Part shown: positions 6,241-46,957 of the stretch, piece by piece
Numbering within the stretch: position 1 is the stretch's first letter
How the letters are laid out: each line of letters opens with the position of its first letter
Assembly: GCA_026395895.1 (NCBI GenBank)
Contig: JAPLXV010000022.1
Location: 1 to 52,934 of the forward strand
Direction of reading: 5' to 3'
DNA: 52,934 bases
Origin: Candidatus Nomurabacteria bacterium
GTDB lineage: Bacteria > Patescibacteriota > Minisyncoccia > Phycocordibacterales > UBA9973
Made by a program: the position numbers and the translations under genes
The notes under the pieces: model-generated
Told to the model about the DNA's origin: nothing
Database searches by the model: none
What the model saw: only the letters and a program-made list of their open reading frames with translations

Positions 6241-7722
6241 ATGGGAAAGAAATATTACCCGACAATTGGGCTTGAAATACACGCTGAGTTGAAGACAAAC
6301 ACGAAAATGTTTTGTAGTTGCAAGAATGACCCTGATGAAAAAAAACCGAATGTAAATATTTGTCCTGTTTGCATGGCGCATCCGGGAGCTTTGCCAGTCA
6401 TTAATAAAAAAGCTATCGAAAATGTTATCAAAGTTGGTTTGGCGATAGAAGGGAAAATTGCTGATTTTACAGAATTTGATAGAAAAAATTATTTTTATCC
6501 AGATATACCGAAAGGTTATCAGATTTCTCAATATAAATATCCGATAGTTTCCGGGGGGCATTTGGCAGATTTTGACGTCACTCGAGTGCATTTAGAAGAA
6601 GATACGGCTAATAATAAACATTTCCCCGAAGCCCAGCTTAGGGGAGTTGGAGTTTCCCCTAAGCTGGGCTTCGGGGAAGAAGGATACTCTTTAATCGATT
6701 TCAATCGCGCTGGGGTTCCTTTGATGGAACTCGTGACAGAGCCGGTGACTTTCGAAGATGCTGAAAAAGCTGCCAAGAGCGCTTCTTCGTTTGCAAAAGA
6801 ACTCCAGTTAATACTTTGGTATCTTGGAGTGTCCGAAGCGAATATGGAAAAAGGAGAAATGAGAGTGGAGGCAAATATTTCGGTTTCTGAAAATAAGAAA
6901 AAATTAGGTACGAAAGTGGAAGTAAAAAATTTGAACTCTTTTAAGAGTGTAGAAAAAGCCATCAAATTTGAATTAGATAGAATGATAAAACTTTCTGAGG
7001 ATGGTAAAGATCAAGAAATAGTACAAGAAACTCGAGGTTGGGATGAAGGAGGACAAAAGACATTTTCACAGAGAAAAAAAGAATCTAGTCATGACTACAG
7101 ATATTTTCCAGAACCAGATTTACCAAAAATGAAACTTCACGAAGCTTTTGATTTGGAAAAAATGAAAAAAGAATTACCAGAATTGCCTCAGGCAAAAAGA
7201 TTGAGATATAAAAAAGATTTTGGGATTAAAGATGAAGACATAGAAAGTTATATTAATGATTTTGAGCTAGGAAAATGGTTTGAAGAAATTGCGATATTTT
7301 TAAAAAATCCTGAGGAAGTTAAAATAGCTTCAAACTATATTACTTCTGATTATTTGGGAATCAAAAAAACGCAGACGGAAGCAAGGCTTCCGTCTGCGGG
7401 AAACTTTGCAGAACTTATAAATTTGGTTGCAGATAATAAAATTTCTTCGCGTGTGGCGAAAGACATTTTAGCTATGATTGTTTTGAAAGATGAATCTCCG
7501 CTTAAAATCGCGACAGAAAAAAGTTTATTGCAGAAAAACGACGAGAAAGAAGTAAAAACTATCGTAGAGAAAATAGTTAAAGAAAATCCAGAAGTTGTGG
7601 CTACTTATAAGGCTGGTAAAGAAAACGCCATAATGTCCTTGGTTGGGAAAGTGATAAAAGAAAGTAAAGGTAGTGCCAATCCACAAATTGTTATCAAAAT
7701 GTTGAAGGATTTGCTAAAATAG
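6241..7722 (+). CDS. gatB: Asp/Glu-tRNA amidotransferase subunit B
   Basis: IGLEIHAEL, FDRKNYFYPD, HLEED, DFNRAGVPLME, YRYFPEPDL. Confidence 0.97.
   Translation: MGKKYYPTIGLEIHAELKTNTKMFCSCKNDPDEKKPNVNICPVCMAHPGALPVINKKAIENVIKVGLAIEGKIADFTEFDRKNYFYPDIPKGYQISQYKYPIVSGGHLADFDVTRVHLEEDTANNKHFPEAQLRGVGVSPKLGFGEEGYSLIDFNRAGVPLMELVTEPVTFEDAEKAAKSASSFAKELQLILWYLGVSEANMEKGEMRVEANISVSENKKKLGTKVEVKNLNSFKSVEKAIKFELDRMIKLSEDGKDQEIVQETRGWDEGGQKTFSQRKKESSHDYRYFPEPDLPKMKLHEAFDLEKMKKELPELPQAKRLRYKKDFGIKDEDIESYINDFELGKWFEEIAIFLKNPEEVKIASNYITSDYLGIKKTQTEARLPSAGNFAELINLVADNKISSRVAKDILAMIVLKDESPLKIATEKSLLQKNDEKEVKTIVEKIVKENPEVVATYKAGKENAIMSLVGKVIKESKGSANPQIVIKMLKDLLK
6622..6678. repeat. In-frame palindromic element in gatB
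   Basis: Perfect 24-bp IR ttccccgaagcccagcttagggga, 9-nt loop; 57 nt encoding FPEAQLRGVGVSPKLGFGE. Confidence 0.92.
7370..7398. repeat. Second in-frame palindrome in gatB
   Basis: cgcagacggaagc-aag-gcttccgtctgcg, perfect 13-bp stem. Confidence 0.8.
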
Positions 7723-7726
7723 AAGG

Positions 7727-8587
7727 ATGAAAACATTACGTGAATACATAAAAGAAGCGGAAGAAAAAGGAGTGGCTATCGGCCATTTTAATATTTCTAA
7801 TCTAGAAGGGTTACATGGGATTTATAATGCCGCGAAAAAATTGAGTTTACCTATTGTAATCGGTCTTTCAGAAGGGGAAGAAAATTTTGTTGGCAGAGAA
7901 GAAGCAGTAGCTCTTATTCAGGCTATTCGTCAGAGAGATAATTATCCAATATTTTTAAATGCTGATCATCATTATAATTTTGAATCGGTAAAATTAGCGC
8001 TGGATGCGGGTTATGACTCTGCTATTATTGATGCTGTAAAATTACCTCTTGAAGAAAATATCATACTTACTAAAAAATGTGTGGATTATGCGAAAAGTTT
8101 AAACAGAGAAGTGCTTATAGAAGCTGAACTTGGTTTTATTGGAACTTCTTCAAAATTGTTAGACGAAATTCCAGAAGGAATTTCGGAAGCAACAATGACT
8201 AAACCTGAAGACGCGAAATATTTTGTAGAAAAAACTAGTATTGATTTACTTGCACCATCTGTGGGGAATGTGCATGGAATGGTCAAAGGAGGAAATCCGA
8301 GATTAGATATCGAAAGAATAAAAAAGATTCGTGAAGCTTGTGGTGTGCCTTTAGTCTTACATGGTGGTTCCGGAATTTCTGATGAAGATTTTACTGATGC
8401 TATAAAAGCGGGGATTTCTATGATTCACATAAATACTGAAATACGTGTAGCTTATAGAGAAGCTCTAGAAAAATATTTGAAAGAAAATCCAAAAGAAGTT
8501 GCGCCTTATAAAACATTACAACCAGCCGTGGAAACCATAGAAAAAGTAGTCGAAGCTCGATTGAAACTTTTTAATCATATAAAATAA
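7727..8587 (+). CDS. fba: Class II fructose-bisphosphate aldolase
   Basis: DH motif (NADHH), EAELG, GNVHG, LVLHGGSG, INT. Confidence 0.92.
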   Translation: MKTLREYIKEAEEKGVAIGHFNISNLEGLHGIYNAAKKLSLPIVIGLSEGEENFVGREEAVALIQAIRQRDNYPIFLNADHHYNFESVKLALDAGYDSAIIDAVKLPLEENIILTKKCVDYAKSLNREVLIEAELGFIGTSSKLLDEIPEGISEATMTKPEDAKYFVEKTSIDLLAPSVGNVHGMVKGGNPRLDIERIKKIREACGVPLVLHGGSGISDEDFTDAIKAGISMIHINTEIRVAYREALEKYLKENPKEVAPYKTLQPAVETIEKVVEARLKLFNHIK

Positions 8588-8666
8588 AAATGTATTCACA
8601 GCTTTTCGAAACAATTAGAAACTTTTTGCACTGGATTCAAATTTTTTTTGACTAATATAAATTTAT

Positions 8667-9197
8667 ATGGAATATTTAGATATATGTGATAGTGAAGGAA
8701 ATTTGTTAGGAATAAAGAAAACTAAAAAAGAAGCTCATGACAAAGGACTTTGGCATAGAGCAGTTCATGTTTGGATTATTAATTCAAAGAAAGAAGTATT
8801 GATTCAAAAACGTTCTCATTTAGTGGAAAATCATCCAAATCTATGGGATATTTCAGCAGCTGGACATGTTTCTGCTGGAGAAGATTATATAACTTCAGTT
8901 TTAAGAGAAACAGAAGAAGAAATTGGTTTAAAACTTAAACCAGAAGATTTTATCCGAATTGGAATAGTAAAAAATATATCTGCGAGGAGGGGGTATATCA
9001 ACAATGAAGTAGACCCAGTTTACATTGTAAAAATGGATTTAGAAGTAAATAAGATAAAAAAACAAGAAGAAGAAGTTTCTGAAATAAAATTTATATCATA
9101 CAAAAAACTTGAACAAATTATTAAAAGCAATGACCCGACTTTTGTGCAACATCCAGAGGAATATAAATTACTCTTTGATTATATTAGTAAAAATTAA
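8667..9197 (+). CDS. NUDIX hydrolase (IPP isomerase-like)
   Basis: H..GLWHRAVH, Nudix box GHVSAGE...RETEEEIG. Confidence 0.88.
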   Translation: MEYLDICDSEGNLLGIKKTKKEAHDKGLWHRAVHVWIINSKKEVLIQKRSHLVENHPNLWDISAAGHVSAGEDYITSVLRETEEEIGLKLKPEDFIRIGIVKNISARRGYINNEVDPVYIVKMDLEVNKIKKQEEEVSEIKFISYKKLEQIIKSNDPTFVQHPEEYKLLFDYISKN

Positions 9198-9760: not shown

Positions 9761-9799
9761 GTTTTTATTATAGCAGAAAATGTTATAATAATAAAATAG

Positions 9800-11614
9800 A
9801 TGAAAGAAGAAATACAAAGATTTTTTAAAGGGGAAGTGGAAGATAGTGATGAAACACTTTCAAAATATTCTCGGGATGCGAGTATTTTTGAGGTAAGACC
9901 AAAATTAGTGCTTTTCCCGAAAGATTCAAAAGATGTTCAAAATTTAGTGAAATGGGTTTCTGAAAATAAAAATAAATATGCAGACCCGGAGAAAAATAAG
10001 GATTGGAAAAATCTTTCTATTACCGCTCGTTGTGCGGGGACAGATATGTCTGGTGGGGCAATAGGGGAGTCTTTAGTTTTAGATTTTACTCGGCATATGA
10101 ATAAGTTAGTGGCATTTCCCCCCTCTACTTTACAAGGAGAGGGTCGGGGTGAGGTGGATAAAATTACCGTCCAGCCCGGTATGTTCTATCGAGATTTTGA
10201 AAAAATAACTTTAGAAAAAGGATTGATTTTGCCTTGCTATACCGCTTCCAAAAGTATCAATGCTATGGGAGGAATGTTTGGCAATAATTCTGCTGGAGAA
10301 CGAACTCTTAAATATGGAAAAACAGAAGATTATATTTTAGAAGCAAAAGTTGTTTTTTCTGATGGTAATGAGTATGTCATTAAACCGCTTTTTCAAGATG
10401 AATTAACGAAAAAAATCGCACAATCGAATTTTGAAGGGGAAATTTATAAAAATGTTTATAATCTGATAAATAAAAATAAAGAAGAAATAAGTCAGGCAAA
10501 ACCACAAGTCAGTAAAAATTCTGCCGGCTATTACATCTGGAATGTCCTAGAAAACAAAAACCAGAATCTAAAAAATTTTTCAGGTCCTCGGATCTCCGGG
10601 GCCCCGAACCCCGGCCAGACCATTCAAAATCTTTCAAATTTTAGTTTTTTTGATTTAAACAAGCTTCTGGTGGGTTCGCAGGGGACTTTAGGTATAGCCA
10701 CAGAAATTACCTTTAAACTCGTTCCCAACCCTAAATATTCTAAACTAGTAGTTGTTTTTATGAATAATTTGGAACCCTTAGGACGTCTGGTGGATGAGAT
10801 TTTAGTATTTAATCCAGAAACATTAGAAGCTTATGATGACAAGACGATGAAGTTAGCGGTTAAGTTCTTTCCAGATTTTCTAAAAAACAAAGGTTTTATC
10901 GGTATGATTAAATTTATGTGGAGTTTTTTACCAGAATTAAAAATGATGCTCACCGGAGGTTTTCCTAAATTAATTCTTCTAGCTGAATTTGCGGGAGATG
11001 ATGAAATTTTGGTGGATAAACAATGTGTTCTTCTAAAAGAGAGAATAAAAGGTTTTAAATTGAAAGTTCATATTACTAAATCAGAAATTGAAGCAAATAA
11101 ATATTGGGATATTAGAAGAGAGAGTTTTGCTCTTTTACGAAAACATGTTGCCGGTCTTCATACCGCTCCATTCATAGACGACATCATAGTTCGTCCAGAA
11201 TTTTTGCCAAAATTTATTCCAGAACTTAATCAAATTCTTAAACAATATAATTTAACTTACACCATAGCAGGGCATGCTGGAGACGGTAATTTTCATATTA
11301 TTCCTTTGATGGATTTTTCGCGTCCTGATACGGTAAAAATTATCATTGAACTTTCGGAAAAAGTTTACGACCTTGTTTTAAAATATCATGGCTCAATTAC
11401 TGCTGAACATAACGATGGTATTATTCGCACTCCTTTTTTGAAGAAAATGTATGGGGAGAATATTGTTGCTCTTTTTAAAGAAATAAAAAATATTTTTGAC
11501 CCTAAAGATGTTTTTAATCCAGGTAAAAAAGTTACTTTGGAAGATGGAAGTGGCACAAAAGAATATATGACTAAACATATTGTCTTGGAACATAATATCA
11601 TTCACAGAGTTTAG
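9800..11614 (+). CDS. FAD-linked oxidoreductase (GlcD/D-lactate dehydrogenase family)
   Basis: AGTDMSGG, GG...NNS.G, GSQGTLG, GHAGDGNFH, AEHNDG, FDP..VFNPGK. Confidence 0.9.
   Translation: MKEEIQRFFKGEVEDSDETLSKYSRDASIFEVRPKLVLFPKDSKDVQNLVKWVSENKNKYADPEKNKDWKNLSITARCAGTDMSGGAIGESLVLDFTRHMNKLVAFPPSTLQGEGRGEVDKITVQPGMFYRDFEKITLEKGLILPCYTASKSINAMGGMFGNNSAGERTLKYGKTEDYILEAKVVFSDGNEYVIKPLFQDELTKKIAQSNFEGEIYKNVYNLINKNKEEISQAKPQVSKNSAGYYIWNVLENKNQNLKNFSGPRISGAPNPGQTIQNLSNFSFFDLNKLLVGSQGTLGIATEITFKLVPNPKYSKLVVVFMNNLEPLGRLVDEILVFNPETLEAYDDKTMKLAVKFFPDFLKNKGFIGMIKFMWSFLPELKMMLTGGFPKLILLAEFAGDDEILVDKQCVLLKERIKGFKLKVHITKSEIEANKYWDIRRESFALLRKHVAGLHTAPFIDDIIVRPEFLPKFIPELNQILKQYNLTYTIAGHAGDGNFHIIPLMDFSRPDTVKIIIELSEKVYDLVLKYHGSITAEHNDGIIRTPFLKKMYGENIVALFKEIKNIFDPKDVFNPGKKVTLEDGSGTKEYMTKHIVLEHNIIHRV
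10118..10155. repeat. In-frame palindromic remnant in oxidoreductase
   Basis: ccctct..ctt/aag..agaggg plus ggggtgaggt tail shared with 45808-45829; encodes PPSTLQGEGRGEV. Confidence 0.65.
10556..10650. repeat. In-frame MITE-like insertion in oxidoreductase
   Basis: Imperfect 24-nt AT-rich IR around a very GC-rich core; encodes NQNLKNFSGPRISGAPNPGQTIQNLSNFSF between conserved AGYYIW and DL..L.VGSQGTLG. Confidence 0.6.
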
Positions 11615-11651
11615 ATTTGCTTTTTGGCTTTTTTTATATATAATGATGACT

Positions 11652-12386: not shown

Positions 12387-12416
12387 AATTTATTCAATTA
12401 TGATATAATAAAGACT

Positions 12417-14100: not shown

Positions 14101-14104
14101 AAAC

Positions 14105-17458: not shown

Positions 17459-17797
17459 ATGGCTACAAAGCTATATGTAGGGGGACTCCCTTACAGTGTT
17501 CAAGAAGATGCGTTGAAAGACCTCTTCGCACAAGCTGGTAATGTTACATCAGCTGTGATTATTATGGATAAGATGTCAGGTCGCTCAAAGGGTTTTGGAT
17601 TCGTGGAAATGGCAACAGCCGAGGAAGCAGCAAGTGCTATCTCAATGTTTAATGACCAAGAATTTGAAGGACGCAAGCTTACAGTAAATGAGGCTCGTCC
17701 AATGGAAGCTCGACCACCTCGCACAGGAGGTAATGGCGGATACGGCGGAGGAAATGGCGGTTACGGCGGTGGAAATCGCGGACGTCGAGAATACTAA
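17459..17797 (+). CDS. RRM RNA-binding protein with Gly-rich tail
   Basis: RNP2 KLYVGGL, RNP1 KGFGFVEM, GGNGGY repeats. Confidence 0.95.
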   Translation: MATKLYVGGLPYSVQEDALKDLFAQAGNVTSAVIIMDKMSGRSKGFGFVEMATAEEAASAISMFNDQEFEGRKLTVNEARPMEARPPRTGGNGGYGGGNGGYGGGNRGRREY

Positions 17798-17811
17798 TCT
17801 ATAATTAGTGC

Positions 17812-17842
17812 GCAAAAATCGCCCTTAGGGCGATTTTTGTTT
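17812..17842 (+). terminator. Intrinsic terminator
   Basis: caaaaatcgccc-tta-gggcgatttttg followed by T residues. Confidence 0.75.
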
Positions 17843-17877
17843 GCAGATAAAACATATATGTGATATAGTCTTTTCAG

Positions 17878-22256: not shown

Positions 22257-23096
22257 ATGGCAAGTACTAAAGAAAAAATTAAAAATATTGCATTATTTGA
22301 AGGAAATAAAGTCCGTCGTGTTTGGTATGAAAACAAATGGTTTTTTGTTATTTCCGATATTGTTTTTGTGTTAACTGAATCAAATGATGTAAAACAATAT
22401 GTTAAAAAAATGAGAGTAAGAGATCCAGAGCTTTCTGTCAAGTGGGGTACAATTTGTACCCCACTTCCAGTTGTTTCAAGGGACGGGAAACAGAGAGAAG
22501 AATTAACGGCTGATTTGGAGGATATTTTTCGTATTATTCAATCCATCCCATCCCCAAAAGCTGAACCATTCAAACAATGGCTTGCGAAAGTCGGAAAGGA
22601 AAGAGTAGATGAAATCCAAAATCCAGAACTTGCCATGGAACGAATGAAAAGTTTATATGAACAAAAAGGTTATCCCAATGATTGGGTTGCAAAAAGGATG
22701 CGTGGTATCGCTGTTCGTAATACCTTGACGGATGAATGGGATAAGCGGGGACTTAAAAAAGGAATTGAGTACGCAATTTTGACTAATGAGATAATACAAG
22801 GAACTTTTGATATGAAAGTGGATGATTATAAAAAACATAAAAATCTTTTTGTCCAACATAATTTGCGCGACCATATGGGAGATATTGAGCTTATATTGAC
22901 CATGCTTGCCGAAGCAACAACAACCAAGCTTTCTGTGGACCGTGATTCAAAAGGTTTTAATAAGTTACATAATGATGCAAAAGAAGGAGGAGAAATAGCA
23001 GGAGAAACACGCAGAAAAATAGAAAATCGTTCTGGTAAAAAAATATCAACAAAAAATAATTTTTTAAATATTAAAAATAAGAAGAGATTAAAATAA
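22257..23096 (+). CDS. Bro-N domain protein (phage antirepressor-like)
   Basis: VRRVW...W.F.I.D.V..LT, RIIQSIPSPKAEPFK.WLA, LTDEW, NLRDHM. Confidence 0.88.
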   Translation: MASTKEKIKNIALFEGNKVRRVWYENKWFFVISDIVFVLTESNDVKQYVKKMRVRDPELSVKWGTICTPLPVVSRDGKQREELTADLEDIFRIIQSIPSPKAEPFKQWLAKVGKERVDEIQNPELAMERMKSLYEQKGYPNDWVAKRMRGIAVRNTLTDEWDKRGLKKGIEYAILTNEIIQGTFDMKVDDYKKHKNLFVQHNLRDHMGDIELILTMLAEATTTKLSVDRDSKGFNKLHNDAKEGGEIAGETRRKIENRSGKKISTKNNFLNIKNKKRLK

Positions 23097-23115
23097 AATA
23101 TGTTAATATAATTTT

Positions 23116-24066
23116 ATGGCATCAACCAAAGAAATTAAAAGAAGAATAAAGAGTGTGAAGAGCACAAAGAAAATCACTAAAGCGATGGAACTTGTGGCTG
23201 CTTCCAAAATGAAGAGAGCAGTCTCTTCAACTCTGGCTTCACGTTTGTATGCGGAATATTCTTGGGAAGTTTTAACTTCCATTGCTAAAAATACAGAAAA
23301 GATAACTCATCCACTTTTTGTAGAACGTGAAGTAAAAAATATTTTACTTCTTCTCATTACTTCCAATCGTGGACTCTGCGGTGCATATAATACGCAGGTT
23401 ATTAAAAAAGTTTTGGCTTTTCTTCAAAATTCCCAAAAGACGGTCTTTGGGGAAGAATCCAAAAGACCGTCTTTTGGGATTGATATTGTGGCTATCGGCA
23501 AAAAAGGAGACGTAATGATGCGTCGGGTAGGCAAAAATATTATTGCTAGTTTTTTTGAATTGCCAAGCAATGTTTCTCTTTTTGATATTATTCCAATATC
23601 TGAATTGGCGGTCAATGAATACAATCTTTTAAATTATGACAAAGTTTTGGTTGCTTATACTGATTTTGTTTCTGCTCTTTCCCAAAAACCAAATATTAAA
23701 CAAATCATTCCAGTTTCTAAAACAGATTTGAAAGAATTAATTGAAAAAGTTGCGGAAGCCGGTCTTCCGCGAGAAGAACGCGGAAGACCGGCTTCCGCAG
23801 AGAAACCAGTAGATTATTTATTCGAAGGAGATCAAGAAGCACTTATTGGTTCATTAGCAGAAAAAATAACTCGTATGCAAATATATCAAATGTTTCTTGA
23901 ATCTAACGCTTCCGAACAATCTTCTCGAATGGTCGCTATGAAGAATGCTTCAGATGCTGCAGGAGAAATGATAGATGATTTAACATTAGTATTTAACAAA
24001 GCTCGCCAGAGTAATATTACCAGAGAAATTTCGGAAATAAGTGCTGGTATGGCGAGTGTGAATTAG
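23116..24066 (+). CDS. atpG: ATP synthase F1 subunit gamma
   Basis: KITKAMELVAASK, RGLCGAYN, SEQSSRMVAM, RQ..IT.EI.EI. Confidence 0.97.
   Translation: MASTKEIKRRIKSVKSTKKITKAMELVAASKMKRAVSSTLASRLYAEYSWEVLTSIAKNTEKITHPLFVEREVKNILLLLITSNRGLCGAYNTQVIKKVLAFLQNSQKTVFGEESKRPSFGIDIVAIGKKGDVMMRRVGKNIIASFFELPSNVSLFDIIPISELAVNEYNLLNYDKVLVAYTDFVSALSQKPNIKQIIPVSKTDLKELIEKVAEAGLPREERGRPASAEKPVDYLFEGDQEALIGSLAEKITRMQIYQMFLESNASEQSSRMVAMKNASDAAGEMIDDLTLVFNKARQSNITREISEISAGMASVN
23431..23479. repeat. In-frame palindromic doublet in atpG
   Basis: Perfect 18-bp IR tcccaaaagacggtcttt / aaagaccgtcttttggga; encodes SQKTVFGEESKRPSFG. Confidence 0.88.
23751..23799. repeat. Second in-frame palindromic doublet in atpG
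   Basis: Perfect 21-bp IR tgcggaagccggtcttccgcg, 7-nt loop; encodes AEAGLPREERGRPASA. Confidence 0.92.
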
Positions 24067-24074
24067 AGCGGGAA

Positions 24075-24112
24075 AAGGCCTTGCCTTAAAAGGAGCCCAA
24101 AGGCAAGGCCTT
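24075..24112. repeat. Intergenic palindromic doublet (copy 1, before atpD)
   Basis: aaggccttgcctt-12 nt-aaggcaaggcctt. Confidence 0.85.
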
Positions 24113-24159
24113 AAAGAGCTAAAAATTATTATTAATATTATAAAAATAACAAAAAGTAA

Positions 24160-25515
<1,356 letters not shown>

Positions 25516-25530
25516 AAATTTAAAATAGCT

Positions 25531-25567
25531 AGACCTTGCCTTAAAGGGAACCCAAAGGCAAGGCCTT
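25531..25567. repeat. Intergenic palindromic doublet (copy 2, after atpD)
   Basis: 34/37 identical to 24076-24112. Confidence 0.85.
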
Positions 25568-25593
25568 GAGGAGAAAATTTTAGAAATAAATTT

Positions 25594-26037
25594 ATGAAAC
25601 AATTAAAATTAAAAATAATAACACCAGAAAGATTAATCCTTGAAGAAATGGTAGATCAAGTAAGTTTACCGACTACTCTCGGCGAAATTACTGTTTTGCC
25701 GGACCATATTCCACTAATTACTGGACTTACTTCTGGTGATGTGGTGGCTTTAGTAAATGGTGAACATGTACCGATGGCCGTTGTTGGTGGATTTTTGGAA
25801 GTAAAACAGGATGAGAATGGAATTACCAATGTGGCTGTTTTGGCTGATTTTGCTGAACATATGTCAGAACTTTCTGATGAAGCGATAGAAAAAGCCAAAG
25901 CTCGTGCCGAAGAACTCAGGAAACAAATGGAAAATAAAGAAGTTGTTGATTACGAACATTTTGCTGCAGAACTTGAACGCTCTCTCACTCGGGTAAAAAT
26001 CGCCGACAAGTGGAGAACAAAGAAATATAGAAAATAA
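25594..26037 (+). CDS. atpC: ATP synthase F1 subunit epsilon
   Basis: IITPE, GEITVLPDHIP, GGFLEV. Confidence 0.95.
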   Translation: MKQLKLKIITPERLILEEMVDQVSLPTTLGEITVLPDHIPLITGLTSGDVVALVNGEHVPMAVVGGFLEVKQDENGITNVAVLADFAEHMSELSDEAIEKAKARAEELRKQMENKEVVDYEHFAAELERSLTRVKIADKWRTKKYRK

Positions 26038-26038
26038 G

Positions 26039-26749
26039 ATGAGTAAATTTTATGTAGTGGCGACGCCAATAGGGAATATGGGAGACATCACTCTTCGGGC
26101 TATTGAGACGCTCAAGGAGGTGGATTTGATATTGTGCGAAGATACTCGAGAAACAAAAAAAATTTTACAGAAATATAATATAAATACTCCGACCATGAGT
26201 TATCATAGTCAAAGTAAATTAAATAAAGTAGATAAAATTTTTGCATTATTAGAGGAAGGAAAAAATTTAGCTTTAGTTTCGGATGCTGGTACTCCCACTA
26301 TTTCTGATCCAGGGGCAATGCTAATCGCAAAAATCAAAGAAGTTTCCCCGAAGCCCAGCTTAGGGGAATTTCCCCTAAGCTGGGCTTCGAGGATAGAGGT
26401 TATACCCATTCCCGGTGCTACAGCTGTCATCGCTGCACTTTCGGCTTCGGGATTACCAACACATGAATTTACTTTTCTTGGTTTTCTTCCGCACAAAAAA
26501 GGGAGAGAAACTTTATTTAAAGAAATTGCCGAATCAAAACGTACCATGGTTTTTTATGAATCTCCACATCGTATTTTGAAAACATTAAAATCCCTACAAA
26601 AATTTTGTCCCAACAAAAAAGTCTGTTTGGCTCGTGAAATTACTAAAATTTATGAAGAATTCAAAACCGGTTCTCCATCTGAACTCCTAGAATACCTAAC
26701 CCAAAATCCTATTCACCAAAAAGGGGAGTTTACGGTGCTAGTTTCCTAA
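26039..26749 (+). CDS. rsmI: 16S rRNA C1402 2'-O-methyltransferase
   Basis: VATPIGN..DIT.RA, CEDTR, SDAGTP.ISDPG, YESPHR, REITK.YEE. Confidence 0.95.
   Translation: MSKFYVVATPIGNMGDITLRAIETLKEVDLILCEDTRETKKILQKYNINTPTMSYHSQSKLNKVDKIFALLEEGKNLALVSDAGTPTISDPGAMLIAKIKEVSPKPSLGEFPLSWASRIEVIPIPGATAVIAALSASGLPTHEFTFLGFLPHKKGRETLFKEIAESKRTMVFYESPHRILKTLKSLQKFCPNKKVCLAREITKIYEEFKTGSPSELLEYLTQNPIHQKGEFTVLVS
26343..26393. repeat. In-frame palindromic element in rsmI (same family as gatB 6622)
   Basis: 25-nt arm tttccccgaagcccagcttagggga identical to gatB 6621-6645, read in a different frame (SPKPSLGEFPLSWASR). Confidence 0.92.
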
Positions 26750-26751
26750 TT

Positions 26752-28734
26752 TTACAACAAATCTTCTGGGTCTACGAAAACTTCGTAGGAAGGAGGTAAA
26801 GAAGACAACAAATTAAATAAATTTTGGTCTATTGAGGAATTATGAGAAAGTTCGGGCAAAGACCATTTTTGTGAGTCTAATTTTATTAGAGCATTGGTAA
26901 CGTATTGATTTTTATTTTTGGGGATAAATCCACTAAAAATCTCAGGAGCATATTCTTTAAAAACTTCTCGTAATGCTTTTTTAGCTTCTATTGAACCTTC
27001 TTTATCTCCTAAATAAGTAATTTTAATAAAACGTTTATAGGGTGGATAATTTAAATTTTTTCTATCTTCCAATTCTTCTCGCACAAAAGAAAGCAGATTT
27101 TCTGATTTAATGGCCAGAAGGGCAGGGTCGTTTTTATTTTTAGTCTGAATAATTATTTTCTTTTCTGTTTTTGAAATGATAGAAAGCAAAAGCTGAATTA
27201 TCTTTTCACTCATTTTGTAATTTGGAATACTCCACAAAGAATCAAATGAAGCAATAATAGACAAATCAACTTTTTCTTTGAGATAAAAGAAAGCCATTTC
27301 CGTACCCACTAAAATAGAACCAGAATTTTTCTCGAACTCCTTTAAAATTTTTTCTGCCTCTTTGTTTGTTTTTACGGATTCCCTGTCTAATTTAAAAATC
27401 TTGATTTTTGGAAATTTACTTTTTATTTCTTCAAAAACAGTATCGGTGCCAATTCCTAAAGGCATTAAATTCCAGCCTCCGCAATTGGAACATTTAGTTT
27501 CAGGGTCTTTTTCGGTATTACATTTATTACAAACAAACATTCTTTTTTTGCCATCACGAGAAAGGTAAAGAACGACCGGAGCCAAACATTTTTCACAGTT
27601 TATAGTTTCATTACAATCTTTACATATAGTGTAGGTAGCTAATCCCTTGCGAAGCGAAAAGATAAAAACATTTTTTTTATTTTTTAATGAATGTTCTATT
27701 TCCTCGATACTTTTTTCAGAGAATATTTTAAACTTGGAGGCCTTGTTTTCGCTTTGAGAAAGTAAGGTCTCTTTTGGATTTGGATTTATGATACTTATCA
27801 TTGTCTCGTCAAAATTGGTCCTAAAAGACAAAGGATAAACTTCACTTAAGCCATCTATTTCTTTTCTAGCGATAGTTTCATAACGCAACAATGTGTCAGC
27901 CAATATAAATTTTGCATTAATTTTTGCAGCAAAAACTTCTGCAAAAATTCTTAAATCAAAATGAGGCCTAGGAAACATTTTATAAGCATATGAATTTTCA
28001 TGTTCTACAATGATAGCCCCTAAATCAGCGCGAGGAATAGATAAATATTGTGCGGTTCCTAGTATTAATACCCCGTGTGGAGAATTTATTATTTGTTCAT
28101 AATCCTCAATGATTTTTTTAGTCCTTAATCCTCCATGCATAACAAAAGTAAAGTTTTCAATACCTTTTGAAAGCGCTTGTTGAAATATTTCTATATCATA
28201 TTCTGTCGGTAAGACTATAAAAACAGATTTTTTGAGAGCAAAATATCCACGAATTAAAGTTTTATAAAAAGAAATACGATCTTCCAATTGAGCTTGCAGA
28301 AGTAATTTTTCAGTTTTTACCAAAGGACGGTCCTTAAGAGAGTTTCCCCAAGGGCCGTCCTTAAGAAATTCGTTATTCGTAAATTTTTCTATCACATCAT
28401 ATTTTTCTCGGAAGATAGCTGGAATAAAAGAAATGACTCCGCTATTTTTTTTAGAAACAAAATAGGAACTTAATTCAAAAGCAGATTCAATAAGTTCGTT
28501 TCTAAAAATAGAATGTTCTTTTATTTCAGTTATTTTTTTTAATTTGAAGGACATATCTTTTATGCCCGATTTAACATTACTCACATCTTGGCAGGAGACA
28601 ACTAAACCCAAAATTTTTTTACTGCGTATTGGAATACTGACAATACTTCCATTTTTAATATCTTTGGCGGTAAAATAAGTCAAATCTGTCTTGAAGGCCC
28701 CTTTTTCTAGTGGTATGACTGTCACAATTTTCAT
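26752..28734 (-). CDS. priA: Primosomal protein N' (PriA), degenerate helicase motifs
   Basis: N-terminal LTY..G..V.IP, RKG...CxxC..CxxC..CxxC..CxxC, G.GT, ILVGT, YPPY; Walker A and DEEH absent. Confidence 0.85.
   Translation of the reverse strand: MKIVTVIPLEKGAFKTDLTYFTAKDIKNGSIVSIPIRSKKILGLVVSCQDVSNVKSGIKDMSFKLKKITEIKEHSIFRNELIESAFELSSYFVSKKNSGVISFIPAIFREKYDVIEKFTNNEFLKDGPWGNSLKDRPLVKTEKLLLQAQLEDRISFYKTLIRGYFALKKSVFIVLPTEYDIEIFQQALSKGIENFTFVMHGGLRTKKIIEDYEQIINSPHGVLILGTAQYLSIPRADLGAIIVEHENSYAYKMFPRPHFDLRIFAEVFAAKINAKFILADTLLRYETIARKEIDGLSEVYPLSFRTNFDETMISIINPNPKETLLSQSENKASKFKIFSEKSIEEIEHSLKNKKNVFIFSLRKGLATYTICKDCNETINCEKCLAPVVLYLSRDGKKRMFVCNKCNTEKDPETKCSNCGGWNLMPLGIGTDTVFEEIKSKFPKIKIFKLDRESVKTNKEAEKILKEFEKNSGSILVGTEMAFFYLKEKVDLSIIASFDSLWSIPNYKMSEKIIQLLLSIISKTEKKIIIQTKNKNDPALLAIKSENLLSFVREELEDRKNLNYPPYKRFIKITYLGDKEGSIEAKKALREVFKEYAPEIFSGFIPKNKNQYVTNALIKLDSQKWSLPELSHNSSIDQNLFNLLSSLPPSYEVFVDPEDLL
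28323..28362. repeat. In-frame palindromic doublet in priA
   Basis: aaggacggtcctt-14 nt-aagggccgtcctt (12/13 IR); encodes KDGPWGNSLKDRP. Confidence 0.75.
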
Positions 28735-28771
28735 CTTTTCATTCTATCATAATTTGTGATATATTAACGAG

Positions 28772-29785
28772 ATGAGAATGTTTTCAAGAAAATTAGGCAT
28801 AGATTTAGGTACAGCCAACACTTTGGTGTTTTTGCCTGGGAAAGGAGTGGTTTTAAACGAGCCTTCAGTGGTAGCGGTTTCAGAGCAAGACAATAAAATC
28901 CTAGCTATTGGTTTTGAGGCTAAAGATATGATTGGAAAAACGCCAGATTCTATCATAACTTATTGCCCAATGAAAGATGGAGTGATTGCAGATTATCGAG
29001 TGACCGAAGCGATGCTCCGTTATTTTATTAACAAAGCACTTGGGAAATTTAATCTTTTTAAACCAGACGTAATGGTTTCAGTACCGGCTGGAGTTACTTC
29101 TACCGAACGCAGAGCGGTGGTGGAGGCAGCTATACGGGCAGGTGCAAAAAATGCTTATGTAGTGAAAGAACCTATTTTAGCCGCCATTGGTGCTGGTATT
29201 CCAATTTACGAATCAAAAGGATATATGGTAGTTGATATTGGCGGAGGTACAACAGATGTAGCTGTTATTTCTCTTGGTGGAATAGTTTCTTCTACTTCAG
29301 TAAAGTGCGCAGGAAATAAAATTGATCAGGCTATTGCTGATTACATTAAAAAAACTTTTAATTTAGCCATAGGGGATAGAACAGCCGAAGAAGTAAAAAT
29401 AAAAATAGGCGCAGCCGTTCCACTTGAAGAAGAATTGAGAGTAACCATTAAGGGACGCGATTTTATTCAAGGTTTGCCTCGTTCTGCTCAAGTTGGCACT
29501 AATGAAATAGTCAAAGCCATAGATGGAGAATTAAAACAAATAATAAAAGCGATAAAAGATGTATTGCAAGAAACTCCTCCCGAGCTCGCTTCTGATATTA
29601 TGGATTATGGAATTATTATGACCGGTGGTTCATCACAATTACGAAATTTTGCGGATTTAGTTTATAGAAAAACTGGAGTGAAAGCTACTGTAGCTGAAGA
29701 TGCTCTTTTTTGTGTAGTAAAAGGCACAGGTATTGCGCTGGAACATTTGGATGTGTATAAGAAAACTGTTTTAAGTAAAAAATAA
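28772..29785 (+). CDS. mreB: Rod shape-determining protein MreB
   Basis: GIDLGTANT, EPSVVA, DIGGGTT, PPELA.DI. Confidence 0.97.
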   Translation: MRMFSRKLGIDLGTANTLVFLPGKGVVLNEPSVVAVSEQDNKILAIGFEAKDMIGKTPDSIITYCPMKDGVIADYRVTEAMLRYFINKALGKFNLFKPDVMVSVPAGVTSTERRAVVEAAIRAGAKNAYVVKEPILAAIGAGIPIYESKGYMVVDIGGGTTDVAVISLGGIVSSTSVKCAGNKIDQAIADYIKKTFNLAIGDRTAEEVKIKIGAAVPLEEELRVTIKGRDFIQGLPRSAQVGTNEIVKAIDGELKQIIKAIKDVLQETPPELASDIMDYGIIMTGGSSQLRNFADLVYRKTGVKATVAEDALFCVVKGTGIALEHLDVYKKTVLSKK

Positions 29786-40382: not shown

Positions 40383-40408
40383 AAAACTATTATAGCACTA
40401 TCAAAGAA

Positions 40409-42673
40409 TTATTTTATTTTGTTTAATTTATCGGGTCGATAATTTGGACACTTATTATTACTGCATCTTTCTCCTATGGTTTTTGTTCCTTCCATCATTA
40501 AAGAACCACATTTCTCGCATATTTTACCGGTAGGTTTAGCTTTGATGGCGAATTTGCAATCTGGATAATTTGAACAGGAATAAAAAATTCCAAATCGTCC
40601 ACGTCGTTCACTAATATCGCCTTTTTTACAAAGAGGACAAATAACTCCAGTCCTTTTTTTAGCTTCTTGAGCTTCGTCTTTTTTTATAAATTTACATTTT
40701 GGATAACGAGAGCAGGAAATAAAAGTTCCAGAACCGTCGCGTCTTTGGCGTACAATAAGTTTTCCTCCATATACTTTCTTCTTTTTTTCGCCTGCCTGCG
40801 CAGGCAGGCCACATTCTGGACACATTTCTCCAGTTTCTTTTGGACCTTCTAATTCTACGCCGTCCAATTTTAAAGCCCCATCGCAATCTGGATATCTGGA
40901 ACAAGAATAAAATTTACCTCCGCGAGAAAGTTTTATAATCATCTTACCTCCGCACTTTGGACACTTTATATTTTCTGGTGCATCGCCTAAATTGGTCGCT
41001 TTTTCTAATTTTTCTTTTGATTTCACATCTTTGGAAAATGGTCCATAGAAATCTTTTAAAGTTTTCTGATATTCACGTTCACCTCGAGAAATTTCATCTA
41101 GTTCGTCTTCCATTTCTGCGGTAAATGTATCAGAAATATAATTAGCAAAATGTTTTTCCAAAAAATCAGATACCACTTCACCAACATCAGTCGGGAAAAG
41201 AGTTTTGCCTTCTTTCTTAACGTATTCTCGATCTTCTAGAGTTTTCATAATAGAGGCATAAGTAGATGGTCTACCGATATCTCTAGCTTCAAGTTCTTTA
41301 ATCAAACCTGCTTCACTATATCTATTTGGCGGTTCGGTAAATTTTTCTTCTTTAATAAGATTTAGTAATTTTAATTTTTCTCCGACTTTTACTTCTGGTA
41401 ATTCTATATCTTCACCTACGCTATCTTTATATACTTTTAACCATCCAGAGAAAAGAACACGAGAACCAGTAGCAGAAAAATCAGGGAATTTAAATTCTGC
41501 GGAAGACCGGCTTCCGCGTACTGGCGGAAGCCGGTCTTCCGCAAGGACATTTGCGCTTATTTTTGTCTTTAATAATCTTGCATCTGTCATTTGGGATGAA
41601 ACAACCCGTTCCCAAATTAATTTGTAAAGTTTTTGTTGTTCATCGGTACCAGCTCCTAAATTTTCTATGTGAGTTGGACGAATAGCTTCATGCGCTTCTT
41701 GAGCATTTTTTGATTTAGCTTTATAAATTCTTGGTTGAGCATATTCTTTTCCGTATTTTTTTTCAATTAAAGAAACAATTTGCGTTTGAGCAGCTGCAGA
41801 TAAATTAGTACTGTCTGTTCGCATATAGGTAATATGTCCAGCTTCGTAAAGTTTTTGCGCTATTTGCATTGTTCTGGAAGGGGAATAACCAAGTCGTGAA
41901 CTGGCGGTTTGTTGTAAAGTAGAAGTAGTGAAAGGTGCGCGAGGAACTCGTTTTTGTTCTGATTCTTTTACATCTTTAACTAACCAATTTCCTTTTTTAC
42001 CTTCTTCAAGTATTTTTTCAACTAGTTTTTCGTCTCTTGGTTCCTCTGAACAATAAAGAGTTAATTTTCCCTTTTTAATTGTTTCAAAAAGACCCAATAG
42101 TTTCCAATATTTTTCCGGTACGAAAGCACGAATTTCTCTTTCCCGTTCCATTATAATACGAAGCGCAGGGGATTGAACTCGTCCAGCCGAAAGCCCATAA
42201 CGAACCTTTTTCCAAATGAGCCCAGAAAGATCATAACCAACTAGTCTATCAAGAACTCGTCTTGCTTCTTGAGCCCTTACAAGTTTCATGTCAATTTCTT
42301 CTGGATTTTTTAATGCTTCTTTTACTGCTTCTTCGGTTATTTCATAAAATCTAACTCTTTTGACTGGAGCTTTTGTTTTTTTTATTAATTCTTCAATATG
42401 CCAAGCAATCGCTTCTCCTTCGCGATCAGGGTCTGTAGCTAATATTATTTCGTCGGCTTTCTGGGCAAGATTTTGTAATTCATGTACAACTTTTTCTTTA
42501 CCTTTTGAAATTTCATATTTTGGTATAAATCCGCCTTCTATATCTATGGCTTCTTTATTTGATTTTGGCAAGTCGCGAATATGTCCAATAGAAGCACGCA
42601 CTGTGTATGCGCCTTCTAAATATTTTTCAATAGTCTTTGCTTTTGATGGTGATTCAACAATTAATAATTTCAT
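40409..42673 (-). CDS. topA: DNA topoisomerase I
   Basis: IVESPSKAKTI, ATDPDREGE, SAGRVQS, ITYMRTDS, C-terminal Zn ribbons. Confidence 0.97.
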   Translation of the reverse strand: MKLLIVESPSKAKTIEKYLEGAYTVRASIGHIRDLPKSNKEAIDIEGGFIPKYEISKGKEKVVHELQNLAQKADEIILATDPDREGEAIAWHIEELIKKTKAPVKRVRFYEITEEAVKEALKNPEEIDMKLVRAQEARRVLDRLVGYDLSGLIWKKVRYGLSAGRVQSPALRIIMEREREIRAFVPEKYWKLLGLFETIKKGKLTLYCSEEPRDEKLVEKILEEGKKGNWLVKDVKESEQKRVPRAPFTTSTLQQTASSRLGYSPSRTMQIAQKLYEAGHITYMRTDSTNLSAAAQTQIVSLIEKKYGKEYAQPRIYKAKSKNAQEAHEAIRPTHIENLGAGTDEQQKLYKLIWERVVSSQMTDARLLKTKISANVLAEDRLPPVRGSRSSAEFKFPDFSATGSRVLFSGWLKVYKDSVGEDIELPEVKVGEKLKLLNLIKEEKFTEPPNRYSEAGLIKELEARDIGRPSTYASIMKTLEDREYVKKEGKTLFPTDVGEVVSDFLEKHFANYISDTFTAEMEDELDEISRGEREYQKTLKDFYGPFSKDVKSKEKLEKATNLGDAPENIKCPKCGGKMIIKLSRGGKFYSCSRYPDCDGALKLDGVELEGPKETGEMCPECGLPAQAGEKKKKVYGGKLIVRQRRDGSGTFISCSRYPKCKFIKKDEAQEAKKRTGVICPLCKKGDISERRGRFGIFYSCSNYPDCKFAIKAKPTGKICEKCGSLMMEGTKTIGERCSNNKCPNYRPDKLNKIK
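40790..40809. repeat. In-frame perfect 20-bp palindrome in topA Zn ribbon
   Basis: gcctgcctgcgcaggcaggc; encodes GLPAQAG right after CPEC. Confidence 0.8.
41498..41543. repeat. In-frame palindromic doublet in topA (same unit as atpG 23751)
   Basis: Perfect 20-bp IR tgcggaagaccggcttccgc; encodes AEDRLPPVRGSRSSA. Confidence 0.92.
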
Positions 42674-42712
42674 TAAATACAAGTATTACACGAAAAGTAA
42701 TTTTTTTGCAAA

Positions 42713-43576: not shown

Positions 43577-43599
43577 AGCTAATAGTATATAATATAAAT

Positions 43600-44865: not shown

Positions 44866-44871
44866 TATGAT

Positions 44872-45714
44872 ATGAAAAATCGAAGTGTTTTAAATTCTCC
44901 GCGTCTTTTGGAACTAAAAAAGAAAAAACACAAAATCTTAAGAAGAAAGATATTTTTTTTAATTTGTTTTTTTATTTTAATCTTGGTTGGTTTATCTTTT
45001 CTTTCCAAATGGGAATATATCAATATAAATAATATTCAGATTACCGGCAACAAAGTGATAGAGACGAAAATGATTGAAAGTGTTATCAAAGAAAAAATCA
45101 CTGGCAATTATCTTTGGTTTTTTCCAAAAACAAATTTTTTACTTTATCCCAGAGGGGAGATAAAAAGAGAATTGGCTGATAAATTTAAAAGACTGAAAGA
45201 TATTTCTTTGAACGTTCAAAACTTTAAAACTTTAAATATTTCTTTAACAGAAAGAACAGCTCTATATACATATTGTGGTCTTGCTCCGGCAGAATTAGAT
45301 GCAAGTAATCAAAAATGCTATTTTATGGATGATGGTGGTTATATTTTTGATGAGGCTCCATATTTTTCTGGAGAAGTATATTTGAAATTTTATGGCAAAT
45401 CTGATTCCTATTTCTTTCAGCCAAATTTTTCTAAATTAATCTCATTTAAAGAAACATTACAAAAAATTGGTGTGAAGCCAGTTGTATTTTTTGTGGAGGA
45501 CAATGGAGATATGAAAGTATTTTTATCTTCCACCACCTCTCAATTAGGTCCATTTATTAACTTAAAAGCGGATGCTGATTTCAATCAGATAGTAGAAAAT
45601 TTACAATCTGTATTAACTACAGAACCTTTAAAAACAGAATTTAAGACAAAATATTCTTCGCTTCTTTATATTGACCTCCGCTTCGGGAATAAGGTATATT
45701 ATAAATTTAGATAG
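44872..45714 (+). CDS. FtsQ/DivIB-like cell division protein
   Basis: Basic N-terminus, single TM, POTRA-like I.I.GN, C-terminal YIDLRFGNKVY. Confidence 0.75.
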   Translation: MKNRSVLNSPRLLELKKKKHKILRRKIFFLICFFILILVGLSFLSKWEYININNIQITGNKVIETKMIESVIKEKITGNYLWFFPKTNFLLYPRGEIKRELADKFKRLKDISLNVQNFKTLNISLTERTALYTYCGLAPAELDASNQKCYFMDDGGYIFDEAPYFSGEVYLKFYGKSDSYFFQPNFSKLISFKETLQKIGVKPVVFFVEDNGDMKVFLSSTTSQLGPFINLKADADFNQIVENLQSVLTTEPLKTEFKTKYSSLLYIDLRFGNKVYYKFR

Positions 45715-45718
45715 AGAT

Positions 45719-45865
45719 AACCCCCTAAATCCCCCTTGTCAGGGGGACTCTACCTCACCCCAATCTGCTTGTTAGCAGATTTTCCCCTCTCCAGAATTAA
45801 AAATTTTGGAGAGGGGTTAGGGGTGAGGTGTTCCTCCCCTGACAAGGGGAGGCTAGGGAGGGGTT
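45719..45865. repeat. Composite nested REP-like element
   Basis: Outer inverted pair ccccttgtcagggg / cccctgacaagggg; inner acctcacccc/ggggtgaggt enclosing two further hairpins. Confidence 0.88.
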
Positions 45866-45877
45866 GTATTAAAAATT

Positions 45878-46957
45878 ATGCAAAATTTCTGGAAAAAATT
45901 AAAGAAACCATTTTTCTGTTTAGCGCCGATGTCGGACGTTACTGATATTGCTTTTCGTCGCATCTTAGCGAAATACAGCAAAAATAGAGAGAACAAAGAC
46001 AGGGTTGTTTTTTGGACAGAATTTGTGGCCACTGATGGTTTATGTAATAAACTGGCCAAGAAAAAACTTTCCCATATATTAAAATACTCCGAAGCCGAAA
46101 GGCCAATCGTGGCTCAAGTTTTTGGCGCCAATCCTGAAAACATGAAAAAGGCTTGTAGTTATATTGCCAGTCTAGGTTTTGATGGCATAGATATAAATAT
46201 GGGTTGTCCTGATAAATCAGTGGTTGCTCAAGGAGCTGGGTCAGCACTGATAAAAACTCCGCAACTTGCCAGAAAAATTATACAAGCGGCTCATGTGGGA
46301 ATAAAATCAGCAGGAACGCATATTCCAGTGTCAGTTAAAACAAGAGTTGGTTTTTCTAAAGAAGAAATAGATACTTGGATACCAGAATTATTAAAAGAAG
46401 ATATTTCCGCTTTGACGATTCATTTGCGTACTGCTAAAGAATTGTCGCTCGTTCCAGCAAATTGGAATTATATTAAAAAAATAAAAGAACTTATAAAAAA
46501 AAGTGGAAAAGATATATTGCTCATTGGTAATGGTGATGTCGCAGATATTGATGACGCTAGGAAGAAGTATAAAGATTTCGGTTGTGATGGAATAATGATA
46601 GGTAGGGGAGTTTTTGGGAATCCATTTTTCTTTGCATTTCAAAAGCCAGGCTTTAGGAATTTAGAAAAGCCTGGCTTTGGAAAACAAAAAAATTTAGACC
46701 CCTCCTCAATCCTCCCCTTCGCAGGGGAGGAAGTAAAAGAAAAGTTAGAAATTCTCATAGAACACACCCAACTTTTTGATAAAGAACTTGCAAAACCTAA
46801 ACATAAAAGTTTTGCTGTAATGAAAAAACATTTCAAAGCGTATGTAAATGATTTTCCGGGGGCAAAAGAATTACGCGCAAAGTTAATGGGAACAGAAAAT
46901 TCAAAAGAAGTGGAAAAGATAATACGAAGTTTCCTGAAATTGACAAACTCTGATTAG
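45878..46957 (+). CDS. tRNA-dihydrouridine synthase
   Basis: LAPM, DINMGCP, GAGSAL, VSVKTR, IHLRT, GNGDV, MIGRG. Confidence 0.93.
   Translation: MQNFWKKLKKPFFCLAPMSDVTDIAFRRILAKYSKNRENKDRVVFWTEFVATDGLCNKLAKKKLSHILKYSEAERPIVAQVFGANPENMKKACSYIASLGFDGIDINMGCPDKSVVAQGAGSALIKTPQLARKIIQAAHVGIKSAGTHIPVSVKTRVGFSKEEIDTWIPELLKEDISALTIHLRTAKELSLVPANWNYIKKIKELIKKSGKDILLIGNGDVADIDDARKKYKDFGCDGIMIGRGVFGNPFFFAFQKPGFRNLEKPGFGKQKNLDPSSILPFAGEEVKEKLEILIEHTQLFDKELAKPKHKSFAVMKKHFKAYVNDFPGAKELRAKLMGTENSKEVEKIIRSFLKLTNSD
46642..46731. repeat. Two adjacent in-frame palindromic elements in dus
   Basis: aaagccaggcttt-11 nt-aaagcctggcttt, then tcctcccct-tcgc-aggggagga; encode KPGFRNLEKPGF and PSSILPFAGEE. Confidence 0.85.

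Follow-up and report, generated by a model that had tools for sequence, protein, structure and literature searches.

Introduction

To our knowledge, studies of repetitive extragenic palindromes (REPs) and the REP-associated tyrosine transposases (RAYTs) come almost exclusively from Proteobacteria, and REPs are defined as extragenic. How a RAYT chooses the targets of REPINs, the inverted REP doublets, is, as far as we know, still open. Elements of the IS200/IS605 type move by single-strand "peel and paste", in which the transposase TnpA recognizes subterminal hairpins. Small GC-rich repeats also occur in the AT-rich, compact genomes of fungal mitochondria, where double-hairpin elements and GC clusters have been found, some of them in coding or rRNA sequence; we know of no RAYT for either. 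Here, we describe GC-rich palindromes inside and between the genes of a 52,934-nucleotide stretch of DNA from a Candidatus Nomurabacteria bacterium (contig JAPLXV010000022.1 of assembly GCA_026395895.1), which was analyzed at its full length and is called the window below. These palindromes are very probably non-autonomous elements of the REP/REPIN type, in several families that are each paired with a RAYT-like Y1 (HUH) transposase gene of their own at another locus of the genome.

REPs within open reading frames (ORFs) have been reported before. Monomers and dimers of this kind are described in Opitutus terrae, in Rickettsia conorii (the Rickettsia palindromic elements RPE-4 and RPE-6), and in others (Di Nocera et al. 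2013, PMC3733652). The passages of that paper on intragenic copies state that the dimers encode about 20 to 30 amino acids, that their hosts are often replication or repair genes, and that some ORFs have been hit twice (PMC3733652). The same passages describe Rickettsia palindromic elements as palindromic repeats inserted in frame in functional genes, to which they add peptide segments (PMC3733652). Thus, in-frame intragenic REPs as such are already known from that work and are not unprecedented (PMC3733652).

Results

The window is contig C18 of a genome (G000 in our numbering, in which relatives are labeled G001 upward) that comprises 672,149 bases in 35 contigs, with 34% G+C, an estimated completeness of 97%, and a coding fraction of about 90%. 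We found 58 GC-rich palindromes in it (arms of at least 12 nt, loops of at most 16 nt), as compared to 0.35 under a first-order Markov null (20 replicates, maximum 1). GC-rich perfect hairpins with a stem of at least 7 bp numbered 184, versus 24.0 in 10 shuffled replicates (maximum 33), in which codon order was permuted within ORFs and bases were permuted between them. When codon order alone was shuffled in ORFs, about 21 GC-rich palindromes were left, namely, those in the unshuffled intergenic sequence. A slower search returned 63 palindromes, with 38 in ORFs, 21 intergenic, and 4 straddling an ORF end. An earlier, sequence-only reading of the window had singled out the motif ARG-N5-CYT and suggested its comparison with a codon-shuffled null. 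Hairpins with AAG-N5-CTT or AGG-N5-CCT occur 42 times in the genome as compared to 0.1 times in the codon-order and intergenic shuffles, so that the motif is well above the shuffled level.

Many of these hairpins are copies of dispersed units, which we grouped into families. Families A to G together have 85 units in the genome, of which 57 lie in ORFs, 25 between them, and 3 at ORF edges. The family A unit, CCCCKAAGC-N3-GCTTMGGGG, is present in 36 copies (24 lying within ORFs, 10 between them, and 2 at their edges), and 7 near-identical family A doublets all lie within ORFs. When at most one mismatch was allowed, the unit gave 31 matches in G000 and 19 in the nearest relative, G006, but none in the 29 other relatives searched; a reversed-pattern control also gave none. 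Family C carries GACG...CGTC inside its stem, as read from the sequence. No parent insertion sequence (IS) was seen, and no target-site duplication was evident in comparisons of filled with empty sites, where the exact boundaries are blurred by variable loops. A loose context of T-runs or purine-runs around the sites was noticed by eye only, and we claim no target motif. A separate candidate, an association of REPs with the DnaA-box-like sequence TTATCCACA, was dropped, as 1 of 24 boxes lay near a family A unit.

The genome encodes six RAYT-like Y1 (HUH) ORFs of 219 to 237 amino acids. Five passed the Pfam Y1_Tnp cut-off in a whole-genome search while the sixth was weaker, and four pass it as isolated proteins. 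For all six, the best NCBIfam model was NF047646, the REP-associated tyrosine transposase. Two HUH histidines and one tyrosine are invariant in their alignment, and a profile built from the six proteins matches PDB 2xm3 ("TRANSPOSASE") over the HUH and tyrosine motifs (E 8e-4). The paralogues are 27 to 60% identical to the first of them and thus seem too divergent to be copies of a single IS.

Four of the six genes are flanked by hairpins that are dispersed in the genome, and two of the six carry a copy inside their own ORF. The gene at C14:4205-4918 has family A units on both sides and a further copy within the ORF, directly after the HUH motif; its G006 orthologue is likewise flanked by family A. 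The gene at C19:12063-12767 is flanked by family C, the core of which is identical to that of a hairpin in gatB of the window, and also holds a copy inside the ORF. The genes on C33 and C16 each have a flanking hairpin of their own (ACAGGC-AAG-GCCTGT and GCGTTAGG-TCTTG-CCTAACGC, respectively) and no copy in the ORF. The search for a RAYT or IS200-like Y1 transposase gene flanked by the units in question, which the sequence-only reading had proposed, thus turned up six genes, four of them so flanked.

The two self-copies are in frame (C14:4476-4496 and C19:12249-12281), and in the G006 orthologue of the C14 gene, the internal copy lies at the same place with its hairpin loop flipped. The C19 gene of G000 and its orthologue in G010 (contig C35, L210) have different flanks, family C in G000 and AACGCCAGGCGTT in G010, and the left flank of the C19 gene holds both hairpin types. 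This pair suggests that the cognate hairpin of a RAYT-like gene turns over. About ten GCAAA pentanucleotide repeats lie downstream of the C16 gene, in its right flank (C16, approximately 17790 to 17860).

All ten GC-rich palindromes that had been cited in the window are present, at positions that were exact or at most 2 nt off. Their arms are 13 to 24 nt long and mostly 95 to 100% complementary, and the window elements measure 29 to 57 nt. Reading of the arms bore out AAG-N5-CTT or AGG-N5-CCT in every arm. The description as doublets with arms across a spacer also stood, while the spacers proved to measure 1 to 14 nt rather than 3 to 14 nt. Host gene names were assigned with NCBIfam models, which agreed with the names first given to gatB, atpG, rsmI, priA, topA, and dus, with PriA and DusB as best matches below the cut-off. 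For each site, orthologues were drawn from 18 genomes of the same genus and 12 of the same order, with up to 26 relatives per alignment.

The gatB gene (6241-7722, plus strand; 493 amino acids; NF004012 GatB, 530 bits, over the cut-off) holds two elements. The first, at 6622-6678, is a family A doublet of two inverted CCCCKAAGC-N3-GCTTMGGGG units, with 24-nt arms of 100% complementarity and a 9-nt spacer, and encodes FPEAQLRGVGVSPKLGFGE. It is absent from all 25 orthologues covering the site and amounts to a net gain of 17 amino acids over G006. The second, at 7370-7398, is a family C single hairpin with the core ACGGAAGC-AAG-GCTTCCGT and a 13-bp stem, in agreement with its earlier description as a single unit, and encodes TQTEARLPSA. 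There is no length change here relative to 26 orthologues, and the hairpin is a replacement of the same length. The same codons are occupied by different 10- to 11-bp hairpins in G006, G014, and G015 and by a 13-amino-acid family I insert in G007.

Two further doublets lie in atpG (23116-24066, plus strand; 316 amino acids; TIGR01146, 281 bits, over the cut-off). A family G doublet at 23431-23479 (core AAGAC-S-GTCTT; 21-nt arms, 95% complementary; 7-nt spacer) spans residues 106 to 122. No palindrome was found at its site in 19 of 20 orthologues, and the remaining one, G015, has a different palindrome with 22-nt arms. A family B doublet at 23751-23799 (GCGGAAG-N5-CTTCCGC; 21-nt arms, 100% complementary; 7-nt spacer) spans residues 212 to 228, in a loop that varies in length among 20 orthologues and is not clearly longer in G000; G006 has a family F doublet there. 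The AtpG of G017 (L045) is 36% identical to that of the window, as compared to 55 to 77% in the other genus members and to 77% for the neighboring RsmI, which suggests a replaced or divergent atp operon in G017.

Family D doublets with 12-nt spacers follow two stop codons, 9 nt past that of atpG (24075-24112) and 16 nt past that of atpD (25531-25566). The slot after atpG holds a different doublet in G007 and, in the remaining 13 genus members, no GC-rich palindrome (stem of at least 8 bp); an AT-rich palindrome of 7 to 8 bp is present in two of these 13. The slot after atpD holds different palindromes in G006 and G012 and none (stem of at least 8 bp) in the other 12.

In rsmI (26039-26749, plus strand; 236 amino acids; TIGR00096, 239 bits, over the cut-off), a family A doublet at 26345-26393, previously placed at 26343, has 24-nt arms of 96% complementarity and a 1-nt spacer and spans residues 103 to 119 (SPKPSLGEFPLSWASRI). 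The site is empty in 10 of 14 orthologues, and G006, G010, and G007 each have another palindrome family there. The priA gene (26752-28734, minus strand; 660 amino acids; all best NCBIfam matches are to PriA, with TIGR00595 at 200 bits, below the cut-off of 230) contains a family E doublet at 28323-28362 (AAGGNC-S-GNCCTT; 13-nt arms; 14-nt spacer), from which the minus strand encodes KDGPWGNSLKDRPL. The same element is present at this site in G009. Of the orthologues that span the site, the remaining six, among them the two closest, have no GC-rich palindrome; the G010 site has an AT-rich palindrome of 8 bp.

The topA gene (40409-42682, minus strand; 757 amino acids; TIGR01051, 714 bits, over the cut-off) has a family B doublet at 41498-41543 with 20-nt arms of 100% complementarity and a 6-nt spacer, spanning residues 380 to 395. 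No palindrome (stem of at least 7 bp) was found there in 15 of 20 orthologues, and G010, G006, G015, and G008 hold four different ones. A loop-less GC palindrome at 40788-40811, which had been overlooked, encodes GLPAQA and is also an insertion relative to orthologues, a 6-amino-acid segment shared only with G010 among 20 of them. One TAA lies in frame within the topA match in G023. Last, in dus (45878-46957, plus strand; 359 amino acids; best match TIGR00737 DusB, 208 bits, below the cut-off of 293), a family F-like doublet (AAGCC-A-GGCTT) at 46628-46692, with its core at 46642-46678, lies in the variable C-terminal part. The region varies in length among 10 orthologues, G000 is not clearly longer, and other palindromes occur in G006 (family I) and G003 (21-nt arms).

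The sequence-only reading had taken all the intragenic copies as lineage-specific in-frame insertions. This view is supported for 6622, 23431, 26345, 28323, and 41498, fails for 7370 as a same-length replacement, and for 23751 and 46642 goes no further than a position in variable loops. A like pattern across orthologues was seen in four more family A hosts, which lie outside the window.

Several of these sites are filled in more than one species. A quick concatenated tree (2,518 columns) recovered (G000,(G006,G010)) with a value of 100 in the Shimodaira-Hasegawa-like approximate likelihood ratio test, while a tree from TopA only left the genus unresolved, with 10 of 18 inner branches open. In G000, G006, and G010 alike, both the rsmI site and the topA site are filled, with a different family in each species. 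Congeners with different palindrome families at the same sites are the new point of this study, and on the aligned sequences, they point to reuse of preferred targets or to in-place exchange of the element already present. Family A copies are common to G000 and G006 at four orthologous sites, one of which is inside a RAYT gene, while other family A copies are confined to one genome, and the copies are thus of mixed ages. At two of the shared sites, G000 and G006 have 3 and 4 differences, respectively, among the 42 unit positions, while the coding flanks are only 73 to 81% identical. Thus, the units appear to be conserved or refreshed faster than they decay.

Such slots, filled in several species by different sequences of one shape, would also be expected if the palindromes were selected RNA or DNA structures, such as mRNA stabilizers, pause or termination signals, or protein-binding sites, which stay at fixed positions while their sequence drifts by compensatory change. 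The intergenic copies 9 to 16 nt past stop codons, a position typical of classical REPs, and the two shared sites at which units are more conserved than coding flanks fit this explanation as well. However, most orthologues are empty at gatB 6622, atpG 23431, rsmI, and topA, by the counts given above, and the structures are thus dispensable; moreover, neighboring species differ by swaps of whole families, without stepwise compensatory change. We consider this explanation quite improbable as an account of the palindromes, although a function of some copies is compatible with their being REP elements.

The hairpin at gatB 7370 bears on another possibility, namely, that hairpins arise and are perfected in place during replication by intra-strand template switching (quasi-palindrome correction), with no mobile element or transposase involved. 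At this site, there is no change in length, and perfect hairpins of differing sequence occupy the same codons in four species; in addition, the two arms of a doublet match each other perfectly, also in those cases in which the individual hairpins contain a mismatch. On the other hand, template switching in place does not account for identical 21-nt units at 36 places in the genome, which also flank a transposase gene, nor for the same hairpin types in different genes of different genomes, as with CTTGGACAT...ATGTCCAAG in rsmI of G010 and gatB of G014, nor for insertions of 13 to 19 amino acids where orthologues have nothing. As an origin of the palindromes, it is very unlikely, while it may help to keep the arms matched.

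The presence of REP elements within coding sequence raises the question of their translation. Family A has two stop-free frames, one encoding FPEAQLRG...SPKLGFGE-like peptides and the other SPKPSLGE...PLSWASGK-like peptides. Both occur among the coding copies, and TAG/TAA is present in the third frame. None of the 38 intragenic palindromes contains a stop, although genes were called as open frames in the first place, which makes this observation partly circular. The ribosome bypasses the byp elements of yeast mitochondria, but a similar bypass here, or removal of the inserts from the mRNA, is barely credible, as it would lift the constraints on frame and stop codons, whereas all 38 palindromes are read through, family A copies are restricted to the two stop-free frames, and no split host gene was noticed. 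A look-up of sequencing runs for window positions 23000 to 29000 listed no RNA run, which speaks neither for nor against translation. An assembly artefact is ruled out because the same kinds of element occur in independent genomes.

Translation of the inserts would add 10 to 19 residues to their hosts. We placed three of them on AlphaFold models, computed from shallow alignments of 15 rows for RsmI and 21 rows for AtpG. In the RsmI model (mean predicted local distance difference test score, pLDDT, 73.6), insert 103-119 lies between a helix (90-101) and a strand (119-124), with pLDDT below 50 at 104-116. In the AtpG model (mean pLDDT 82.4), insert 106-122 falls in a loop (109-120) with pLDDT below 50 at 112-116, and insert 212-228 falls in a loop (216-239) with pLDDT below 50 at 216-233. 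All three inserts are therefore in low-confidence loops, the outcome of a mapping onto predicted structures that had been suggested from the sequence.

Relatives of these transposases are widespread. Y1_Tnp matches were found in 16 of the 18 other genomes of the genus (0 to 11 each) and in 6 of the 12 same-order genomes, which represent other families. When one genome per species was scanned, at least 573 loci that encode relatives of these RAYTs were returned. Among the 80 loci listed, every informative title names Patescibacteria or the candidate phyla radiation (Nomurabacteria, Paceibacterota, Adlerbacteria, Yonathbacteria, "Saccharibacteria", and others), and the other titles read only "bacterium". 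Both flanks were available for 63 of the relatives' RAYT loci, and at 55 of these, a word of at least 12 nt is common to the two sides, as compared to 5 of 63 mismatched flank pairs. AAG-N5-CTT or AGG-N5-CCT was found in 42 of the 55 shared words, versus 0.36 in shuffled words, and is thus a signature of the whole Patescibacterial RAYT clade. The "conserved structure and variable sequence" noted in the sequence-only reading would follow from the presence of several REP families that each have a separate RAYT paralogue and that share the apex of the clade. G031 (Patescibacteria) has only 3 copies in total of its RAYT-flanking hairpin, and G032 (Nomurabacteria) has 5, of which both copies away from the RAYT sit in long open frames (591 and 411 amino acids). 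Thus, the expansion seen in G000 is not universal. As judged from these genomes, a divergent and untagged REP/RAYT clade appears to be frequent among Patescibacteria, and a literature search of limited coverage found no paper on RAYTs or REPs in this group and none of relevance on in-frame palindromes in it.

Several further palindromes of the window had been overlooked. A nested cluster of GC-rich hairpins of another family (CCCCTTGTCAGGGG / CCCCTCTCC...GGAGAGGGG) occupies the intergenic region before dus (45723-45858). Its I2 family has 17 copies genome-wide, 12 of which are intergenic. The outer arms of the nest are ACCTCACCCC / GGGGTGAGGT, and similar composites are inserted in gatB of G007 and in dus of G006. 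An extra GC hairpin with a 9-bp stem lies in dus at 46710-46731, and an imperfect element lies at approximately 10118 to 10147.

Discussion

The presence of RAYT-like genes flanked by the repeat units and the insertions relative to orthologues support the proposal, first made from the sequence alone, that the palindromes are REPIN-like and moved by a RAYT; mobilization in trans is what we infer from this association. By extension from the biochemistry of IS200/IS605 and TnpA-REP, a RAYT would recognize the hairpin on single-stranded DNA and would cut and rejoin it, thereby copying or moving units and doublets. RAYT catalysis and single-strand transposition are thus predictions. With about 90% of the genome coding, a copy would survive only if it preserves the reading frame, is free of stops, and has landed in a tolerant loop. 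The outcome would be 10 to 19 extra residues in disordered loops of GatB, AtpG, RsmI, PriA, TopA, and Dus. In sister species, the same loop and intergenic slots could then be targeted again, or the resident element could be replaced in place.

Several observations weigh against this view. No RAYT-like gene was found on the window contig in the whole-genome Y1_Tnp search, and the NF047646 scores of the six proteins, at 31 to 63 bits, are under the curated cut-off of 80. Two of the six genes fit the association poorly, since the one on C15 has no matching flanks and the one on C27 has a flanking hairpin recognized by eye only; neither has a copy in its ORF. For families B, E, F, and G, no RAYT-like gene flanked by them was found in G000, and family G flanks were also absent at the four G006 and two G010 RAYT loci examined. 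The classical tag is missing, as GTAG, CTAC, CGTC, or GACG was found within 8 nt outside the hairpin for 0 of 36 family A units. The intragenic share of the family A to G units is 67%, unlike the definition of REPs as extragenic. It was obtained with coding calls from a greedy set of longest ORFs (719 ORFs, 89.8% of bases) without a gene predictor. Last, simple insertion does not account for the hairpin at gatB 7370, which stands in place of a segment of the same length.

A more specific possibility goes beyond random insertion followed by selection. The occupied sites could be "landing pads", at which related REP/REPIN families are swapped repeatedly in register, at the same codons and post-stop slots, driven by paralogous RAYTs that all recognize one shared hairpin apex. 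Such cassette replacement would keep a set of protein loops hypervariable among the species of a streamlined lineage. We put this forward tentatively and regard it as rather doubtful at present.

The palindromes indicate that a divergent REP/RAYT clade probably persists mainly inside genes of very small, spacer-poor Patescibacteria genomes. In such genomes, REP elements are a possible source of lineage-specific protein insertions, and the positions of the copies would show where core proteins (such as GatB, the F1 gamma subunit, RsmI, PriA, and TopA) naturally have loops that tolerate insertions. That one site is repeatedly filled by different families may be a clue to RAYT target choice.

The double-hairpin elements and GC clusters of fungal mitochondria are organellar, and their likeness to the elements described here is by analogy only. 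The RAYT-like proteins match TnpA of IS200/IS605, a Y1 HUH enzyme (e.g., PDB 2xm3), in profile over the HUH and tyrosine motifs; unlike IS200/IS605, the genes of G000 are not within an IS with distinct left and right ends but are flanked by dispersed hairpin copies. Rickettsia palindromic elements of the RPE-1 type share with G000 the in-frame palindromic inserts that add peptide. At about 100 to 150 bp, RPE-1 elements are longer than those of G000, and we know of no transposase for them. The intragenic REPs of Opitutus and Rickettsia carry GTAG or CGTC tags and are mostly intergenic as families, according to the passages on them (PMC3733652), whereas those of G000 are mostly intragenic. Different families at the same sites in sister species, as found in the genus of G000, are not described in these passages (PMC3733652).

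The closest match is with the REP/REPIN and RAYT systems of Proteobacteria (E. coli, Pseudomonas, and Stenotrophomonas). As far as the relevant parts of the published description go, these have in common with G000 short GC-rich hairpins, both single and as inverted doublets, with family-specific sequences and a cognate Y1 HUH gene flanked by the same hairpins (PMC3116915). They also share several RAYT-REP pairs per genome, species-specific families, and some copies just past stop codons (PMC3116915). In contrast to the Proteobacterial REPs, family A of G000 lacks the GTAG/CGTC tag and has the apex AAG-N5-CTT / AGG-N5-CCT instead. The RAYT-like proteins of G000 are longer than the Proteobacterial RAYTs (219 to 237 amino acids) and fall below the NCBIfam cut-off, and their relatives, among the named titles listed, all come from Patescibacteria metagenome-assembled genomes. 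Finally, unlike the Proteobacterial REPs, two thirds of the units in G000 are intragenic and in frame, in a host genome of 672 kb.

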